Source of the DNA: Opitutales bacterium
GTDB taxonomy: Bacteria > Verrucomicrobiota > Verrucomicrobiia > Opitutales > PNEW01
Assembly (NCBI GenBank): GCA_965219535.1
Contig: CBDCNV010000001.1
Location: 870,001 to 902,000, forward strand
Length of the DNA stretch: 32,000 bases
Reading direction: 5' to 3'
The notes beneath the pieces are model-generated. The model had not been told where the DNA came from, ran no database searches, and saw only the letters and a program-made list of their open reading frames with translations. Positions within the stretch are counted from its first letter, which is position 1; every line of letters starts with the position of its first letter. Position numbers and translations under genes: made by a program. Of the stretch, positions 1-28,981 are shown in pieces.

Positions 1-69
1 GGTCCTGGGACTTTGTCCATGACCGCACAGACAATGGCTGTCCATTAAAGATGATGACTCTGATCGATG

Positions 70-112
70 TACCGAGGAGCTGAAAGCGACGACACTCAAG
101 CGAAGCGAAGAC
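70..112 (+). repeat. 43-nt micro-insertion (TACCGAG family) replacing one A of the GAA codon in LID-E-YTR
   Basis: The sequence is gatg[TACCGAGGAGCTGAAAGCGACGACACTCAAGCGAAGCGAAGAC]atatacg, against an expected gatgaatatacg. It contains an in-frame TGA. The identical 43-mer lies at 6140-6182 (rc) in IS type B. Confidence 0.8.
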
Positions 113-240
113 ATATACGCGTCAATGCTTGGATATCCGGGTCGCCCGTCAACTCACCTCTACCGATGTCCTCTCTGTGCTTAGCGAGGCCATTGAAGAG
201 GAGGGAACTCCTAGCTATATCCGTAGTGACAACGGCAGTG

Positions 241-272
241 TTCCGAGGAGCGAAGCGACGACATGCGAAGCC
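241..272 (+). repeat. 32-nt micro-insertion (TTCCGAG variant) replacing one A of the GAA codon in DNGS-E-F
   Basis: The sequence is agtg[TTCCGAGGAGCGAAGCGACGACATGCGAAGCC]attcattg, against an expected agtgaattcattg. The identical 32-mer lies at 5980-6011 (rc). Confidence 0.8.
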
Positions 273-798
273 ATTCATTGCTCATCAACTGTAGCAGTGG
301 TTGTCCGACAAAAAGATCAAGGCGATCTATATCGATCCGGGTAGTCCATGGCAAAACGGTTTCATCGAGTCGTTTCACAACCGCTTACCCGATGCGTGTT
401 TGAACCGTGAAGTGTTGCTCAGCGTAGCTGAAGCGCAAGTGGTAATTGAATAATGGCGTCAGACCTATAACCATGAACATCCCCACAGTCGTTTAGGCTT
501 TAAAAGCCCACAAGAGTTTGTCAGATTCCTTTCCGCTCTTGGCCGCGTTCGGGCTACGCCCTCACTGCGCCAAGATCTCTCATATACATCAATCCTAAAA
601 CCATTAACTCTCGATAACTCTCTCACTTAAAAATTGGTACGAAAAACAGGGTCCAATCACAGACAATAACTTTTTGGTTGATCGGAAGTTGAGAAGAAAA
701 CTATCAATGTTGTTGCCTGGCAGAGTTGCGATTTGATCCCACAGTGTCTGACAGATCAAGGCGCAACAAGTACATATAATTTTCACAATAACATATAA

Positions 799-4451: not shown

Positions 4452-4640
4452 TGATCGGACCCCGTTTTTCGTACCACTTTTTAAGTGAGAGAGTTACCTT
4501 GTATTAATGGTATTAGGATTGATGTATATGAGAGATCTTGGCGAAGTGAGGGCGTAGCCCGAACGCGGCCAAGAGCGGAAAGGAATCTGACAAACTCTTG
4601 TAGGCTTTTAAAGCCTAAACGACTGTGGGTCCGTTCAGGG
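4452..4640 (-). mobile_element. IS type A, 3'-terminal ~190-bp fragment (inverted relative to copy at 1-659)
   Basis: The reverse translation is ..RLGFKSLQEFVRFLSALGRVRATPSLRQDLSYTSIL.., nearly identical to 490-600. The terminal repeat starts at 4452. Confidence 0.85.
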
Positions 4641-5380: not shown

Positions 5381-5882
5381 TGCTCAATAGATATTTATGC
5401 AGGGGATAAAACAATCTGTTCCCCTATCCCACAAGTCAAGTTAAAGAGCCTCTCGATAGTAAACGTTCAGTTACATCCTCGTATAGCCTCACTCTTTCTG
5501 AAAATTCTGGCAGATCCACTTTCTTCGAATTCAGGGAAGATCCAAGCGCATTTACATTTTGAAGGTAGATCTCTTCTGTTTTCAAATTTACTCATTTTTT
5601 ATCGTATTTTTATACAAACCGACGATTTGGTGGGGTTATTAGTGTTTTCAATCTGGTCGGGTTAGGCAAACTGGTCCACCGGGAGAGTTAGTGTGGAGAG
5701 GTTAATGTTGAAGTTGAGTGGGTAGAGGAAGTCAAGGCTTGGGCGGGCACGGACATGATTGTAAAGCCAGCACCAATCTTCGATCACCACACCTGCTTCG
5801 GTTAAAGTGCATAGCTGTTGACGGTTTAAACACTGCTCGCGAAAACGGGCATGAAACGACTCAACGAAACCATGGAAGATGT

Positions 5883-5906
5883 CGCTAACGCTCGGTACTG
5901 CCAAGG
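5883..5906 (-). repeat. 24-nt micro-insertion in the PWQ-N-GF codon of IS type B
   Basis: On the coding strand the sequence is ccttggcag[TACCGAGCGTTAGCGACATCTTCC]atggtttc, against an expected cagaatggtttc. Confidence 0.75.
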
Positions 5907-5979
5907 GCTTGCTGGTTGGATATAGACGGTTGTGATTTTCATCGCCGCCAGTGAAGCTCGCAATTCGCTTTGAGTAAAT

Positions 5980-6011
5980 GGCTTCGCATGTCGTCGCTTC
6001 GCTCCTCGGAA
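5980..6011 (-). repeat. 32-nt micro-insertion, identical to 241-272, at the DNGS-E-F codon of IS type B
   Basis: The reverse complement reads ggatcgg[TTCCGAGGAGCGAAGCGACGACATGCGAAGCC]atttactc. Confidence 0.8.
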
Positions 6012-6139
6012 CCGATCCATTGTCGCTACTCATATATTGTGGAGGTCCATGCCGGTCGATCAGTTTTTGCATGATACAGCGCAGCGTTTCCGCATTGCTA
6101 TAGCGATCAACATGGATCACCCGACACTCGCGGGGGTAT

Positions 6140-6182
6140 GTCTTCGCTTCGCTTGAGTGTCGTCGCTTTCAGCTCCTCGGTA
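6140..6182 (-). repeat. 43-nt micro-insertion, identical to 70-112, at the VLD-E-Y codon of IS type B
   Basis: The reverse complement reads gctcgatg[TACCGAGGAGCTGAAAGCGACGACACTCAAGCGAAGCGAAGAC]ataccccc. Confidence 0.8.
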
Positions 6183-6612
6183 CATCGAGCACGGGCAGCA
6201 TTTTTAAACTGCCACCGCGAACCGTCTTAGCGTGGATAAAATCCCAACTCCAAACCTGGCCGGGATGTTCGCCCTTCCTCGGCAGCCTGGTGTAGATACC
6301 CCGGCGACGGCCTCTTCGCTTGCACAGGACCGATCGCCACAGGTCCAGTTCACCTCGCAGACCTTGTACGAGCCGTTTACCTACTTGCCAGCCTTCGTGC
6401 TTGAACAACTTCGTGATCTTCGGATAGCCCCAACTGGCGTATTGCCGTGATAACCGCCTTACTGGCCCCTTCAATTTCGTTAGCCAAGCATCCGCATGCC
6501 TTGGCCCGATACGCATAGGGGCAACGGTGCAGCTGAAAGTATCGGCACGCTGCACGCATCGTACACTGGCCCTCAGCCACAAGGCTCTTTGCCCCTTGTG
6601 CCCAGCGCTTAT

Positions 6613-6636
6613 TACCGAGCGTAAGCGACATCTTCC
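6613..6636 (+). repeat. 24-nt micro-insertion in the orfA/orfB junction region of IS type B, opposite orientation to the transposase
   Basis: The sequence is cgcttat[TACCGAGCGTAAGCGACATCTTCC]attttattcgag. Confidence 0.7.
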
Positions 6637-7039
6637 ATTTTATTCGAGGGTCTCCTGCACCATCTCTATCCCCAGCAGCTTGTCTGCGAGCATCCGTTTT
6701 AGCCGCGCGTTCTCCTTCAAAGAGCTCTTTCATCCACTTGGCTTCGTTGACATCAATCATCCCTAACTCACGCTTCCAACGGTGCAAGCTCTGTTCGCTT
6801 ATATTGTTCTCGCGGCATACTTCCAGGATCGTTTTCCCTTTGTCTGCCTAGCGCAGCATCCGTATCTTCTTTTCGGTCGTGTAGCTTTTGCCTTTCTTTG
6901 TCCGAGTCCTTCTTAGGTTACCCACACTATCTTTTCAACTGTCCCTGTTCCCGTGGTCTCGACCAAATTAATATAAATCGTAGATTTACAAGCAATGCCA
7001 GACGGGAGAGTTGAACTCCAAACTAAAGGCTCAGGAATT

Positions 7040-7284: not shown

Positions 7285-7478
7285 TTAAATCAACTCGAAA
7301 ATTCTTGGCCGATTCCTGGCCGAATATCAGCAAAAAATATGATTCCTGCCCTTTCCTGCCAAACATTTAAAGGCAAGGTCAGGAAATTAGAGGAAAATAT
7401 TATTATTGGTTCGTTATTTAAGTTTAACTAATTTTTAATAAGCAGCTGATAAGCTATTATTGAGTCCCGTTCACAGTC

Positions 7479-7780
7479 GGTTTCATCGAGTCGTTTCACA
7501 ACCGCTTACGCGATGAGTGTTTGAACCGTGAAGTGTTGCTCAGCTTAGCTGAAGCCATAGGGGTAATTGAACAATGGCGTCAGACCTATAACCATGAACA
7601 TCCCCACAGTCGCTTAGGCTTTAAAAGCCCACAAGAGTTTATCAGATTCCTTTCCGCTCTTGGCCGCGTTCGGGCTACGCCCTCACTTCGCCAAGATCTC
7701 TCATATACATCAATCCTAAAACCATTAACTCTCGATAACTCTCTCACTTAAAAATTGGTACGAAAAACGGGGTCCGATCA
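7479..7780 (+). mobile_element. IS type A, 3'-terminal ~300-bp fragment
   Basis: The translation is GFIESFHNRLRDECLNREVLLSLAEAIGVIEQWRQTYNHEHPHSRLGFKSPQEF.. followed by the terminal repeat ending ..GGGGTCCGATCA at 7780. Confidence 0.85.
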
Positions 7781-9594: not shown

Positions 9595-9622
9595 ACTATC
9601 TTTATTTGTACATCTCTATTAA

Positions 9623-9663
9623 AGTTGCCCTCAACTTGCCCCTAAGTTGCCCTCAAGTTGCCC
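9623..9663. promoter_or_regulatory. Four direct repeats A(G/C)TTGCCC at exact 11-bp spacing (iteron/operator-like)
   Basis: AGTTGCCC starts at 9623, ACTTGCCC at 9634, AGTTGCCC at 9645 and AGTTGCCC at 9656. They lie in the gap between the 254-aa and 92-aa genes. Confidence 0.6.
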
Positions 9664-19411: not shown

Positions 19412-19697
19412 TTGTCGATTGTGTGGTGTTGATTGGACCCCATAATTACTACCAAGTTAAGTGAGAGTCATTCCGTGGGTTATCTGTTGCTGGTTTAGCA
19501 GGTGCTGGCGGAGGGAAACCATAGGCCGAGTGGAGCCAGCACCTGTTGGATTGAGTTCCTGCCAGAGTTTGGCAAAAGCGTTGGGACAGAGAAAGCCTAA
19601 ACGACAATGAGGGTGATGGGTATTGTATTTTTGCTTCCACGCATGGATGACAACACGCGCTTCGGTAACGCTTAAAAACCACTCCTGGTTTAAGCAT

Positions 19698-19733
19698 GAG
19701 TGCTTCGCTATGTCGTCACTGCGTTCCTCGGTA
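19698..19733 (-). repeat. 36-nt micro-insertion at the HD-E-CLN codon of IS type C
   Basis: On the coding strand the sequence is catgacg[TACCGAGGAACGCAGTGACGACATAGCGAAGCACTC]atgcttaaac, against an expected gacgaatgctta. Confidence 0.75.
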
Positions 19734-19774
19734 CGTCATGCAGTCGATGGTGAAAGGATTCAACATGGCCGTTT

Positions 19775-19817
19775 ATTATTCTCGCTTTCGCTCGTTGAGG
19801 GGTCGCTTCGCTCGGTA
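19775..19817 (-). repeat. 43-nt micro-insertion at the PW-Q-NG codon of IS type C
   Basis: On the coding strand the sequence is ccttggc[TACCGAGCGAAGCGACCCCTCAACGAGCGAAAGCGAGAATAAT]aaacggccat, against an expected tggcaaaacggc. The 3' boundary is ambiguous by a few A/T bases. Confidence 0.65.
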
Positions 19818-20328
19818 GCCAAGGACTGCCAGGGTCGATGTAGATAATGTCGATCTGGCGCTTGAGGAGTGCTTCTGTGACTTTTTGTGCTACGAACTGC
19901 GAACCGTTATCGGAGCGGATGCATGGGGGTTGCACCACGTCTTCGCTTTTGAGCGAATGAGATATCTTTATGGCTAGGCATTGACGGGTATGTTCATCGA
20001 TTAAAGTCATCATCCGCAGTTGTCCCCCGCGATCGGTGTGGTCGGCAACAAAATCCCAACTCCATACATGGTTCGGCTTTACTGCTTTGGTAGGGAGCCC
20101 AGTAGAGTGCCCTCGTCGTCTCTGTCGGCGACGAGAGGGTTTCACTCCAAGCCCTTCAGTTCTTCGCACTTTTTGCACCAATTTACAGTTTACCTTCCAC
20201 CCCTCTTTGTCCATTAGGGCACGAATACGACGATAGCAATAACGTGAATGTACCTTTGAAAGTCTAATGATTCGTCTCACCATGGTCTGATTACAATAAG
20301 ATTCTCGCTTGCACTCGTAGAGATAAGT

Positions 20329-20688
20329 TCAGCGATGGAGCCCAAAAAACCTGCAGGTCCAACGCAGCGAGCAAACCCCCTGGGCTACCACATGCTTGAC
20401 CGCTTCTTTCTTATGCGACGAGCTTACCATTTTTTTATCCACTTCCTCCAATACGCGATTCTTTAACATCTGCTCGGCTAACATCTTTTTCCGTTCCATG
20501 TTCTCGCGTTCAAGTTCCTTTAGCCGCCTCGCATTGCGTAGGTCTATCTGGTCATATCTTTTTCGCCAGCGATGGTAACTTTGAGCACTGATGTTGTGCT
20601 CACGGCAGACTTCCTGGATGCCTCTGGCGCTGTCTACTTCGCGCAGGATTGCTATGATCTGCTCGGTGTTGTGTCTTTTCTGTTTCAT
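20329..20688 (-). CDS. IS3-family transposase OrfA (HTH_Tnp_1 plus leucine zipper) of IS type C
   Basis: The product reads MKQKRHNTEQIIAILREVDSARGIQEVCREHNISAQSYHRWRKRY..LKELERENMERKKMLAEQ. The frame continues through an A7 run into orfB-type sequence and stops at a single TGA that is in frame with the next ORF (19708..20283). Confidence 0.8.
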   Translation of the reverse strand: MKQKRHNTEQIIAILREVDSARGIQEVCREHNISAQSYHRWRKRYDQIDLRNARRLKELERENMERKKMLAEQMLKNRVLEEVDKKMVSSSHKKEAVKHVVAQGVCSLRWTCRFFGLHR

Positions 20689-20776
20689 TCGTCTTTCCGT
20701 TCTTATTTACGGAAAGACTCTCACTGGCAATGGTCCAGTCCCCGGCGGTCACGCCAATCGGGATGCTGAATTTATT

Positions 20777-21118
20777 AATTTAGATACAAGATAATCAAAC
20801 CGGTGACTTTTAGACTAACAACTATTAAACGAGTAAGCAATCGACCAATCAAAAAGATTACAATTTACAAAGGAAAATTATCGAGATATAACCTACTTCC
20901 ATTTACTAGACCTGAACACAGCAGTGTTAGTAACGGTAACTAAAACTAACGCTGAATATAAAGTTAAGATTTTCTAAAAATTTGCTAATTATAATTCATT
21001 TTGCTGCCTTTACCTGCATTTAATAGCATTTTTAAAATTTCATAAAATGCTGATAAATAATGACTAGAGAAACAAGTTGAAAATAGATGCATGCAGATGA
21101 ACGATTCAAATAGGTTCG
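20777..21118. repeat. R2: copy 2 of the ~330-bp direct repeat
   Basis: R2 is collinear with R1, with the identical 35-nt core at 20934-20968. It ends ..GCAGATGAACGATTCAAATAGGTTC and runs straight into the tRNA fragment. Confidence 0.8.
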
Positions 21119-21137
21119 AATCCCTCCCTCTCCGCCA
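21113..21137 (+). other. tRNA 3'-end fragment (T-loop, 3' T-stem, 3' acceptor strand, discriminator G, CCA): att-site-like remnant
   Basis: The sequence is GGTTCGAATCC-CTC-CCTCTCC-G-CCA. No complementary 5' acceptor strand (GGAGAGG) or D/anticodon arms lie upstream, and the 5' T-stem does not pair. Confidence 0.7.
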
Positions 21138-21161
21138 AATAATTTGCACAGCAAATTATTT
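21137..21161. repeat. Perfect 11-bp AT-rich palindrome directly after the tRNA fragment
   Basis: The palindrome is AAATAATTTGC-aca-GCAAATTATTT. Confidence 0.7.
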
Positions 21162-21217
21162 AGGAGGGATGAGAACCCGAGAAGAGGGTTGTGCAAATTG
21201 TCGATTGTGTTTCTTCT

Positions 21218-21388
21218 CTCTTGTCATTGCGAAGGAGGCGTAGCCGACTGCGGCTACCGAGCGCAGCGACATCTTCCATTCCAGGGGAATGCCGGTCACG
21301 TATTGACATCCCCCTGGAATGGAAGATGTCGTCCTGCTGTTGCAGAACTCGGTAGCTTCGTCGCGTTGCTTCTCGCAATGACAATAAG
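21218..21388. mobile_element. Hairpin MITE (~171 bp) with TTGTCATTGCGA termini and a TACCGAG micro-element in each arm
   Basis: The left arm is CTCTTGTCATTGCGAAGG..GCGGC[TACCGAGCGCAGCGACATCTTCC]ATTCCAGGGG. The right arm is CCCCTGGAAT[GGAAGATGTCGTCCTGCTGTTGCAGAACTCGGTA]GCTTCG..TCGCAATGACAA. The micro-elements lie at 21255-21277 (+) and 21321-21354 (-). Confidence 0.75.
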
Positions 21389-21414
21389 AAATCAATCCGA
21401 CATCCGCAATCGAT

Positions 21415-28597: not shown

Positions 28598-28702
28598 TGT
28601 GCAGGATGCAAGATCCTAAATACAGGATTGCTAGACAGTGAACAGTGATCGGTCGCTGTCGTCCCACAGTGCTGAAATTAAAGCTAATCGTGTTTACTTC
28701 CC

Positions 28703-28938
28703 CTCTTGTCATTGCGAGGAGCAACGCGACGCGGCAATCCAGGCAAATAGTCACATTGCCTACGAATGCCAATCTCCGCTCAGATCTGTCGAATGAGGAT
28801 TCGTCTCTTCAATTAAGGTATTCGACCAGTTGAGAGTAAATCCTAATATCCAGGGACCTACATGATGCAGCAGAAATTCCCCTGGAATGGAAGATGTCGC
28901 TACGCTCGGTAGCCGCGCTTCGCTCGCAATGACAAGAG
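28703..28938. mobile_element. MITE (~236 bp) with perfect 16-bp terminal inverted repeats CTCTTGTCATTGCGAG; micro-element only in the right arm
   Basis: The TIRs lie at 28703-28718 and 28923-28938. The right arm reads CCCCTGGAAT[GGAAGATGTCGCTACGCTCGGTA]GCCGCGCTTCGCTCGCAATGACAAGAG, with the insert at 28889-28911. The left arm has GCGGCAATCCAGG at 28731-28743 with no insert. Confidence 0.8.
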
Positions 28939-28981
28939 TGTGGTTACGAAGATAAGGATTATATTTAGTAACCACCAGGCA

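Follow-up and report, generated by a model that had tools for sequence, protein, structure and literature searches.

In a 32,000-nucleotide (nt) stretch of an Opitutales genome (the window, to whose full length all positions refer), two diverged transposase genes of insertion sequences (IS) carry letter-identical inserts at the same conserved codons. These inserts belong to a family of 23–50-nt DNA cassettes that replace a dinucleotide of their target and duplicate nothing, that are present or absent in otherwise near-identical IS copies, and that share a 21-nt core with loci in distant phyla. Among the loci listed, those closest to the window come from metagenome-assembled genomes of Opitutales (Verrucomicrobiota), and proteins of the window are found on megabase contigs of the same group.

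The two host elements, here named IS type A and IS type B, belong to the IS407 group of the IS3 family and consist of orfA with a helix-turn-helix (homologues PF01527) and orfB with an rve DDE integrase (homologues PF00665, PF13683, and PF13276). Membership of the group is supported by the overlap of orfA and orfB at a run of seven to eight A (-1 frameshift) and by the DNGxEF and PWQNG..ES..R..DE motifs. The type A copy in the window is decayed, with in-frame TAG and TAA codons, and is 90–94% identical to full copies at two other loci (L025 and L036). Type B is a member of a larger IS family, type C (approximately 85% nucleotide identity).

The first insert, X1 (43 nt, TACCGAGGAGCTGAAAGCGACGACACTCAAGCGAAGCGAAGAC), and the second, X2 (32 nt, TTCCGAGGAGCGAAGCGACGACATGCGAAGCC), occur exactly in both elements (Table 1), X1 at the (L/V)(I/L)D-E-Y codon and X2 at the DNGS-E-F codon, which are homologous in types A and B. 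Between the inserts, types A and B have 128 nt each and disagree at 68 positions (47% identity), and none of the 75 insert bases differs. No match was found in 100 shuffles per pattern with three mismatches tolerated. Both inserts destroy the frame: G, the 43-mer and A together make 15 in-frame codons, a TGA among them, and G, the 32-mer and A make 34 nt and a +1 shift. The original prediction had described letter-identical inserts at the same codons of two diverged IS3 genes, an interval in which about half of the bases match, and the loss of frame, and all of this holds. It had also raised one recent recombinant segment spanning both inserts as a possible undoing, but an interval only 47% identical means that such a shared segment does not explain them. 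An assembly or adapter artefact was rejected, as the cassettes are found in long-read assemblies and in an Illumina Tara assembly.

Cassette anatomy, distribution and the replacement junction

The cassettes are purine-rich on one strand. Each consists of two variable bases, a core of the form CCGAG(GA)GCGN(N)AGCGAC(GAC)A and a short variable tail, which usually contains a second GCGAAGC-type word and ends in C. The two ends, T(A/T)CCGAG... and ...C, are not complementary, and the cassettes thus lack terminal inverted repeats. No Watson-Crick fold or palindrome better than in shuffled sequence was detected (DNA folding z +0.15 to +1.5). An Rfam search of the window at gathering thresholds gave no match, a permissive search of positions 1–400 returned only chance matches, and 15 other loci that were searched yielded only neighbouring tRNAs.

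The core contains the word GCGAAGC, with variants GCGTAGC, GCGCAGC, GCGTTAGC, GCGTAAGC, and GCGGAAGC; copies with GCAAAGC or GCTGAAAGC fall outside this word. GCGNAGC and GCGNNAGC are mini-hairpin DNA words of exceptional stability, melting at 76.5 °C as DNA versus 39 °C as RNA (PMC13037366). Within GCGN(N)AGC, only the loop bases change from copy to copy and GCG..AGC stays the same, a hint that the constraint acts on single-stranded DNA.

Using the pattern CCGAGGAGC-N1-3-AAGCGACGACA on one genome per species, we detected the 21-nt core at at least 96 loci, mostly in Opitutales and otherwise in Woeseiaceae, Campylobacterales, Spirochaetes, and further groups. About half of the core matches listed come from a handful of Opitutales assemblies and are IS copies, many of which have both inserts, 171 nt apart. 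The core is also present in repetitive extragenic palindromic (REP)-like hairpins, in intergenic units of Coraliomargarita-like genomes (TT-core-AGACCGG..CCGGACC), adjoining tRNA genes of Woeseiaceae and Campylobacterales, and at the apex of an approximately 110-nt palindromic repeat in spirochaetes. Cassette-like modules lie in tandem or nested in Campylobacterales (L028 and L083) and Opitutales (L079 and L072), where extra purine-rich units interrupt the GAA loop in the tail hairpin of another unit.

Three matches were found on viral contigs. Two represent one solitary cassette on two near-identical IMG/VR contigs, of the Coraliomargarita type (TT-core-AGACCGGGCGCGGAGCGAACCGGACC) and apparently inside coding sequence (L171:7800–7950 and L172:12150–12300); the third (L173) has the core between other flanks. 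BLAST searches of plasmids and phages with X2 gave matches at chance level only. A stretch of a Vibrio alginolyticus plasmid (NZ_CP054702.1, L170:1500–1530) matches the core and tail of X2 at 27 of 30 positions at the start of an unannotated stretch resembling an open reading frame (ORF; ATGGAGGAGCGCGCGACGACATGCAAAGCCATG), which is probably chance (E ~0.3) and looks like ordinary coding sequence. When Joint Genome Institute (JGI) metagenomes were scanned for cassettes of any kind at the DNGxEF codon, 57 loci came up, every one a chance match in unrelated sequence; this arrangement is absent or rare in that collection.

In all filled and empty pairs that we compared, an A-purine dinucleotide (in GAAT, GAGT or similar) is exchanged for the insert plus A, and the alignments show no target duplication. 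At the IS sites, GATGA(A/G)TA becomes GATG-X1-ATA (site 1), xxGGAGTT(C/T) becomes xxG-X2-ATT(C/T) (site 2), TGGCAAAAC becomes TGGC-X3-AAAC (site 3, long type), GATGAGTGT becomes GATG-X4-ATGT (site 4), and CTTACAGTTTT becomes CTTAC-X-ATTTT (the antisense site past the slippery A-run). The same rule applies elsewhere: the REP-like hairpin has CACGGACAGGAATGTCCGTG / CAGGAATGTCC when empty and CAGG-X-ATGTCC when filled, a tRNA T-loop remnant has GGTTCG-X-ATCC where intact tRNAs alongside have GGTTCGAATCC, and a nested copy has GCGAG-X-ATAAC (GCGAG, X and ATAACAAG) for the empty GCGAGAATAAC.

According to the original prediction, each insert replaces one A of a GAA codon. This was incomplete, since the nearest empty alleles mostly have GAG and the replaced unit is an A followed by a purine. 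The empty allele of X2 is AGTGAGTTC or AGTGAGTTT, with GAG, in all empty copies counted, and GAG is also present at site 4 in the 11 empty copies read there (L098 was not read at this site), against a genome-wide preference for GAA of 68% among Glu codons. Two readings fit: A and G are truly removed, or susceptibility is confined to GAA alleles and the GAG alleles are those left empty.

Hairpin-loop targeting was rejected as a general rule because the flanks pair in only about 10 of 54 distinct contexts, which include REP hairpins, terminator-like hairpins and apexes of miniature inverted-repeat transposable elements (MITEs), and not at the IS sites. Inspection by eye of cassette tails against target flanks showed no consistent guide-like complementarity.

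Some tRNA-associated copies have a different arrangement. At three loci (L014:264–487, L055 with the same arrangement, and L070:461–640), partial 5' tRNA copies of 22 or 35 nt end exactly at the cassette core, that of L014 together with 44 nt of upstream sequence, and a full copy of the same tRNA follows 40–70 nt on, unlike a simple replacement junction. In Woeseiaceae (L059:7340–7560 and L007:20–240), a second copy of only the T-loop-to-CCA end lies approximately 100 nt 3' of an intact tRNA; this second copy carries the cassette in its T-loop and resembles an integrase attachment-site remnant.

Cassette types, empty alleles and recombination in transposase genes

At least five sites are hit in Opitutales IS407-group transposase genes, each with its own insert type, which is common to IS families that are approximately 50% identical. 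Site 1 carries X1 in types A, B, D, and E. Site 2 carries X2 in type A and the entire C superfamily, and a different variant in one unrelated IS (L094). At site 3, X3-long is found in A-like copies, D and F, and a short type in B; site 4 carries X4 in A-like copies and F; and the antisense site carries a short type in B and C2. No cassette type was seen at the site of another type among the sampled loci. Random MITE insertion does not explain five sites with their own types across IS families, as the original prediction had argued from two.

Synonymous positions 1–6 nt from the cassettes differ by family (left flank GGC AGT G, GGA TCG G or GGT TCC G; right flank TTC ATT or TTT ACT), which indicates that ordinary homologous conversion did not carry the inserts across families. 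For the pairing of type and site we see three options, namely type-specific target recognition, paralogue-templated copying with microhomology, and survivorship of compatible combinations.

Empty alleles, which the original prediction had proposed to look for among the copies of types A and B, were found in type A and in the C family, to which type B belongs. Insert-free, intact orfB proteins are 91–94% identical to type A, and their DNA has GAG or GAA at the sites. In assembly CBDANS01, an empty copy (U_L043) equals a filled one (C3_L001) across the IS, approximately 1,330 nt, save for AGTTT versus X2-ATTC. Among A-like copies, X1 and X2 are found together, each without the other, and not at all, so that all four states occur; one lineage (L002) is filled at every one of the four sense-strand sites, and one allele with 42 member sequences (L097/P0014) has a different, 21-nt in-frame event precisely at the X2 position.

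The inserts are far less divergent than their surroundings. Between A sublineages, the 128-nt interval differs at 25–26 positions and X1 plus X2 at 0–1. In the lineages with X2, synonymous divergence (dS) is 0.14–1.0 and the ratio of nonsynonymous to synonymous divergence (dN/dS) 0.1–0.17, both upstream and downstream of X2, which itself has 0–1 changes. Either arrival after the divergence of the hosts or strong constraint can produce this.

Had X1 and X2 entered only once, in the common ancestor of types A and B, and then passed down vertically while purifying selection or concerted evolution held them identical, this would account for inserts more conserved than synonymous sites and for the same sites being filled in many lineages. 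We regard this as very improbable. The closest relatives of the filled copies are insert-free (they are 91–94% identical to type A in protein, and one is 100% identical to C3 in DNA outside the site), and the four X1/X2 combinations coexist; both contradict the ancient, selectively maintained insert that the original prediction had listed among its explanations. X1 is missing from most of the C family and present in B, D, and E, and type B is so close to this family that descent of the inserts from an A/B ancestor is untenable. The empty alleles are moreover GAG, which precise loss of a cassette cannot yield.

X2 also marks a crossover point. On the Opitutales chromosome OY829953 (L065:3231–5701), one IS copy has type A sequence upstream and type C sequence downstream of X2, and an inverted copy approximately 1.9 kb away has the reciprocal arrangement; the parent elements are otherwise approximately 55% identical. 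These reciprocal, inverted chimeras indicate recombination at X2 and have the pattern of an inversion by crossover within the shared 32 nt. A comparison of orthologous loci found no IS copies at the same place in related genomes.

The commonest type A lineage (L025:5900–5925 and at least eight identical copies) has an in-frame TAG (..CSF-stop-RAC..) in orfB besides X1 and X2. One copy of this lineage interrupts a Ser/Thr kinase gene, with ATTGCTGG on both sides.

Within the window, eight of the ten cassette copies lie inside IS407-group genes (Table 1). The third element of this group, type F, is empty precisely where its codons are not GA(A/G)T. Its X3-long insert is also found in D (L062), in A-like copies (L002, L031, L047, and L086) and in L103/P0016, and according to the translated sequence would be read in frame as protein in P0016 and type F. 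The A-like copies L002, L012, and L031 carry its X4 type, likewise at this codon. The antisense site 5 of type B is empty in C, C3, and U (AAAAAAAACTGTAAG) and filled at the same spot in C2_L056.

Table 1. IS elements, cassettes and cassette-like units in the window
Feature	Position	Strand	Remarks
IS type A, 3' part, truncated by window edge	1–659	+	IS3 family, IS407 group; decayed copy
X1 in type A, site 1 (LID-E-Y)	70–112	+	in frame with TGA; empty allele GATGAATAT or GATGAGTAT
X2 in type A, site 2 (DNGS-E-F, adjoining second catalytic Asp)	241–272	+	+1 shift
IS type A, further 3' fragment	4452–4640	-	
IS type B, full-length	5654–6966	-	type C family of the IS407 group; four inserts
Short insert TACCGAGCGTTAGCGACATCTTCC, site 3 (PWQ-N-GF) of type B	5874–5897	-	relatives empty, TGGCAGAACGG
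X2 in type B	5980–6011	-	same letters as 241–272
X1 in type B	6140–6182	-	same letters as 70–112; type C relatives empty, CTCGATGAGTAC
Short insert TACCGAGCGTAAGCGACATCTTCC, site 5, antisense to type B	6613–6636	+	directly past A-run of -1 frameshift site
IS type A, further 3' fragment, stops short of insert sites	7478–7780	+	
IS type F, third IS407-group element	19450–20690	-	sites 1 and 2 empty (GAACAT, CAGTTC); sites 3 and 4 filled
X4, 36 nt, site 4 (RLxD-E-CLN, catalytic Glu) of type F	19698–19733	-	
X3-long, 43 nt, site 3 of type F	19775–19817	-	in frame, no stop; translation LPSEATPQRAKARII
X-like unit TACCGAGCGCAGCGACATCTTCC	21255–21277	+	one arm of composite intergenic palindromic repeat (~21215–21390)
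Related GTCATTGCGAGGAGCAACGCGACGCGGCAAT hairpin	~28708–28738		
X-like unit TACCGAGCGTAGCGACATCTTCC	28889–28911	-	in related intergenic repeat

The intergenic units belong to composite palindromes (21215–21390 and 28700–28940) with GTCATTGCGA..TCGCAATGAC arms, X-like TACCGAGCGNAGCGACATCTTCC arms, and CCAGGGG/CCCCTGG centres; in the related hairpin, the GAGGAGC..GCGACG word forms the loop between ATTGC and GCAAT. Beside the first palindrome, positions 21110–21150 hold a tRNA 3'-end-like fragment (GGTTCGAATCCCTCCCTCTCCGCCA) without an ARAGORN call, in which GAAT is unfilled. Type B (6720–6760, minus strand) and the type C copy of L080 (L080:5080–5130) have CTCTTTGAAGG in orfA where relatives have CTC-GAGAAGG; being one base longer, it places the coiled-coil in the orfB frame and makes orfA and orfB one fused ORF without the -1 frameshift. 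An 11-nt unit (AAGTTGCCCTC) is repeated three times in tandem in the intergenic stretch 9622–9663.

Candidate mechanism and alternatives

The reading we favour, which to us is as apt to be wrong as right, is that the cassettes are non-autonomous mini-cassettes mobilised in trans, which knock out transposases and then ride on IS copies and recombine with them. They would be copied into new sites by machinery that they do not encode and that probably recognises the core on single-stranded DNA, and integration would replace an A-purine dinucleotide with the cassette plus A; gain rather than loss would then be the direction of change. The Glu-Phe, Glu-Tyr, Glu-Cys, and Gln-Asn codons of the most conserved IS407-group motifs appear to spell GA(A/G)T or similar, so that the same codons would be recurrent targets in divergent IS families. 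Judged by the reading frames, each hit brings a stop, a frameshift or sometimes a tolerated in-frame loop, and most filled copies would be transposase-dead. Filled copies would spread as the IS copies multiply and be shuffled by homologous recombination with the shared cassette as crossover point, as the X2 chimeras partly show.

Several points weigh against this. The loci were sampled by presence of the core, and frequencies are therefore biased. Empty GAAT sites exist in the same IS elements, and a pure target rule predicts types mixed across sites rather than the observed one type per site, shared by two or three IS families each. The filled lineages with many copies need a source of transposase, and none was identified. 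A Y1 (RAYT/IS200-like) mobilising enzyme, for which the original prediction had suggested looking, was not found: tblastn with IS200, IS608, and Escherichia coli RAYT (REP-associated tyrosine transposase) proteins in approximately 0.8 Mb of sampled loci revealed no mobilising gene and only one weak match (E = 0.19), in repeat-derived sequence. Nothing suggestive of such an enzyme was seen in the ORFs beside solitary copies or the unassigned ORFs of the window. Finally, the otherwise identical C3 and U copies also differ 4 nt outside the cassette (TTT versus TTC), which looks more like co-transfer of flank, as in templated copying, than like a clean insertion.

The alternative that we take most seriously, although on balance we think it rather unlikely, is a homing-like process in which one paralogous transposase gene serves as template for another. 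A break or nick at a conserved codon would be repaired from a filled IS copy, with motif-conserved bases as microhomology, each site would propagate its own type, and no dedicated transposase would be needed. This would suit the strict pairing of type and site across IS families A, C/B/D/E, and F, the TTT/TTC change as the sole other difference between C3_L001 and U_L043, and the crossovers at X2. It would also suit the mosaic A-like sublineages (20% divergence between the inserts versus 4% downstream, with identical inserts) and the shorter in-frame event of L097, which looks like an aborted or partial copy. However, the synonymous differences would require a conversion tract that ends exactly at the cassette, and a flank identity of approximately 50% is far below what homologous repair needs. 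Nor does templated copying account for the core in hairpins, tRNA remnants, and other phyla, or for its conservation at 21 of 21 positions. The homing-like or templated process named in the original prediction thus stays a live option without being proven.

The inserts could instead be tolerated or functional intervening sequences, the filled genes still making transposase by recoding, which we consider improbable. In X2, peptidyl-tRNA-Pro would hop from CCG (243–245, followed by AGG) to CCA (271–273) just before the downstream frame, and the same hop would carry ribosomes in frame over any NN-CCG-AGG...CC cassette that follows the G of a Glu codon, whatever its length, giving ...DNGS-VP-FIAHQ.... 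CCG and CCA are in the needed registers in X2 and in a GAAGCC variant of X1 (four copies), a Shine-Dalgarno-like GAGGAG overlaps the take-off site, and AGG is the least used Arg codon of the genome, though still 11% of Arg codons. The low dN/dS (0.13–0.17) downstream of the nearly invariant X2, the in-frame reading of X3-long in P0016 and type F, and the precedent of a mobile element with its own bypass signal in T4 gene 60 (bioRxiv 10.1101/2022.08.31.505936) point the same way. On the other side, the main X1 ends in ACA and X4 in TCA and neither has a matched landing triplet, both hold in-frame stops, and low dN/dS can predate the insertions. The terminal CC plus A is also found in intergenic copies, which makes it a property of the element and not a sign of selection for bypass, and the commonest A lineage has reached at least nine copies despite its extra premature TAG, so that copy number does not require function. 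Hops at Asp or Ser codons were rejected because they do not restore the frame; only Pro CCG to CCA does so, in X2 and the minor X1 variant.

Slightly more improbable still, in our estimate, is a dedicated system of the host or of a competitor, in which cassettes are written into the catalytic motifs of IS407-group transposases to disable them. It would fit the concentration of window cassettes in IS407-group genes and the four sense-strand sites, which fall on the best-conserved motifs and involve two residues of the DDE triad, the second Asp and the Glu, and the GAG codons of empty copies at sites 2 and 4 could be escape alleles in a genome that prefers GAA. Yet cassettes with the same core are also found in REP-like hairpins, tRNA-end remnants, one another, and MITE-like palindromes of other phyla, and occur in phyla without a visible IS link, which makes the transposase-specific host mechanism of the original prediction unlikely. 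The enrichment in IS elements is expected anyway, since selection removes insertions from essential genes and IS elements rise in copy number, and no associated genes were found.

Returning to trans-mobilised cassettes, a stronger version, which we put forward only tentatively, is that they represent a new kind of mobile DNA of 23–50 nt without ORF, ribozyme, inverted ends or target duplication, which an enzyme reading the 21-nt mini-hairpin core writes into A-purine dinucleotides, with the tail or the donor flanks directing each type to its own site and hence to the same codon of transposase genes that are about 50% identical. A bolder addition to this version is that the NN-CCG-AGG...CCA design allows ribosomes to hop over a cassette that follows the G of a Glu codon. 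If actively mobile, the cassettes would be among the smallest mobile units known in bacteria and would have an unusual integration signature, two target bases being replaced and nothing duplicated; the core common to distant phyla would then point to an undiscovered, widespread enzyme acting on single-stranded DNA. As inserts that inactivate IS transposases at catalytic codons they would be parasites of parasites, and they appear to favour GAG over GAA at the target codons of surviving IS copies. They also provide a portable 30–40-nt homology that lets IS families of approximately 50% identity recombine, one such inversion having been seen. In marine Opitutales, with their many IS elements, the decay of IS copies and the rearrangement of genomes would thus have a hidden driver in the cassettes. 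A principle of targeting, guide-like or templated, could lie behind the fixed pairing of cassette type and site.

Comparison with known systems

We found no description of these cassettes in the literature, in agreement with the original prediction, whose author knew of no described system that does this in IS3 elements; a search with the exact sequences gave only an unrelated primer, the literature on small dispersed repeats and mini-hairpins provided comparators only, and a survey of HUH endonucleases makes no mention of Verrucomicrobia. The cassettes lack defining features of MITEs, REPs, IS200/IS605 derivatives, and known ribozymes.

MITEs are at least 100 nt long, have terminal inverted repeats and target-site duplications, and in some cases lie in frame in genes, such as the Rickettsia palindromic elements. 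The latter resemble the cassettes as non-autonomous inserts in coding sequence, some of them translated as extra loops like X3-long, but the cassettes are shorter and lack both terminal inverted repeats and target-site duplication. The palindrome-associated elements (PATEs) of the IS200/IS605 type have subterminal hairpins and a TnpA partner and insert 3' of a fixed tetra- or pentanucleotide without loss, whereas the cassettes replace two target bases, lack Watson-Crick hairpins and have no TnpA match in the sampled loci.

REPs and their doublets (REPINs), with RAYT (TnpA-REP), are likewise short (20–40 nt), non-autonomous, and highly repeated, probably move as hairpins of single-stranded DNA, and are often found inside IS elements or the reverse. 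They differ in being imperfect Watson-Crick palindromes and extragenic, while the cassettes have no predicted fold (z >= 0) and lie mostly in genes in the window; the sampled cassette loci showed neither a Y1 nor a RAYT gene.

Mini-hairpin DNA (PMC13037366) has exactly the GCGNAGC / GCGNNAGC word that stands at the centre of the core and in most of the tails, which is no more than a clue to a single-stranded DNA stage. It is however a structural motif of phage single-strand origins and N4 promoters (PMC13037366), not a mobile element.

Homing group I and II introns and inteins share with the cassettes the same insert at the same conserved codon of diverged genes, a preference for catalytic motifs, and the coexistence of filled and empty alleles. 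The cassettes, at 23–50 nt, have no ribozyme, ORF or Rfam match, and their flanking bases are not co-converted between families. Translational bypass cassettes are also known from Magnusiomyces mitochondria, where they are called 'byps'. Such cassettes are 27–55 nt long, and X2 has CCG...CCA in the right registers. T4 gene 60 with the mobile MobA (bioRxiv 10.1101/2022.08.31.505936) offers a further likeness as a short mobile coding-sequence insert with matched end triplets and, once the ribosome has taken off, a stop or hungry codon; matched triplets are absent from the main X1 and from X4, and non-coding cassettes have the terminal CCA as well.

Taken together, homing introns, inteins and the T4 gene 60 bypass cassette come nearest in behaviour, and REP/REPIN and the small dispersed repeats (SDR) of cyanobacteria come nearest in kind. 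SDR4–6 of heterocyst-forming cyanobacteria are reportedly 21–27-nt non-coding repeats that behave like mobile DNA, and are said to be present or absent between relatives, to lie inside genes, to be nested in one another and to have no known mobilising enzyme. By this description, the resemblance is one of kind only, as very short, non-coding, mobile-like repeats; sequence and phylum differ, and the Opitutales cassettes are set apart by their cross-phylum 21-nt core, their A-purine junction and their one type per site in transposase genes.

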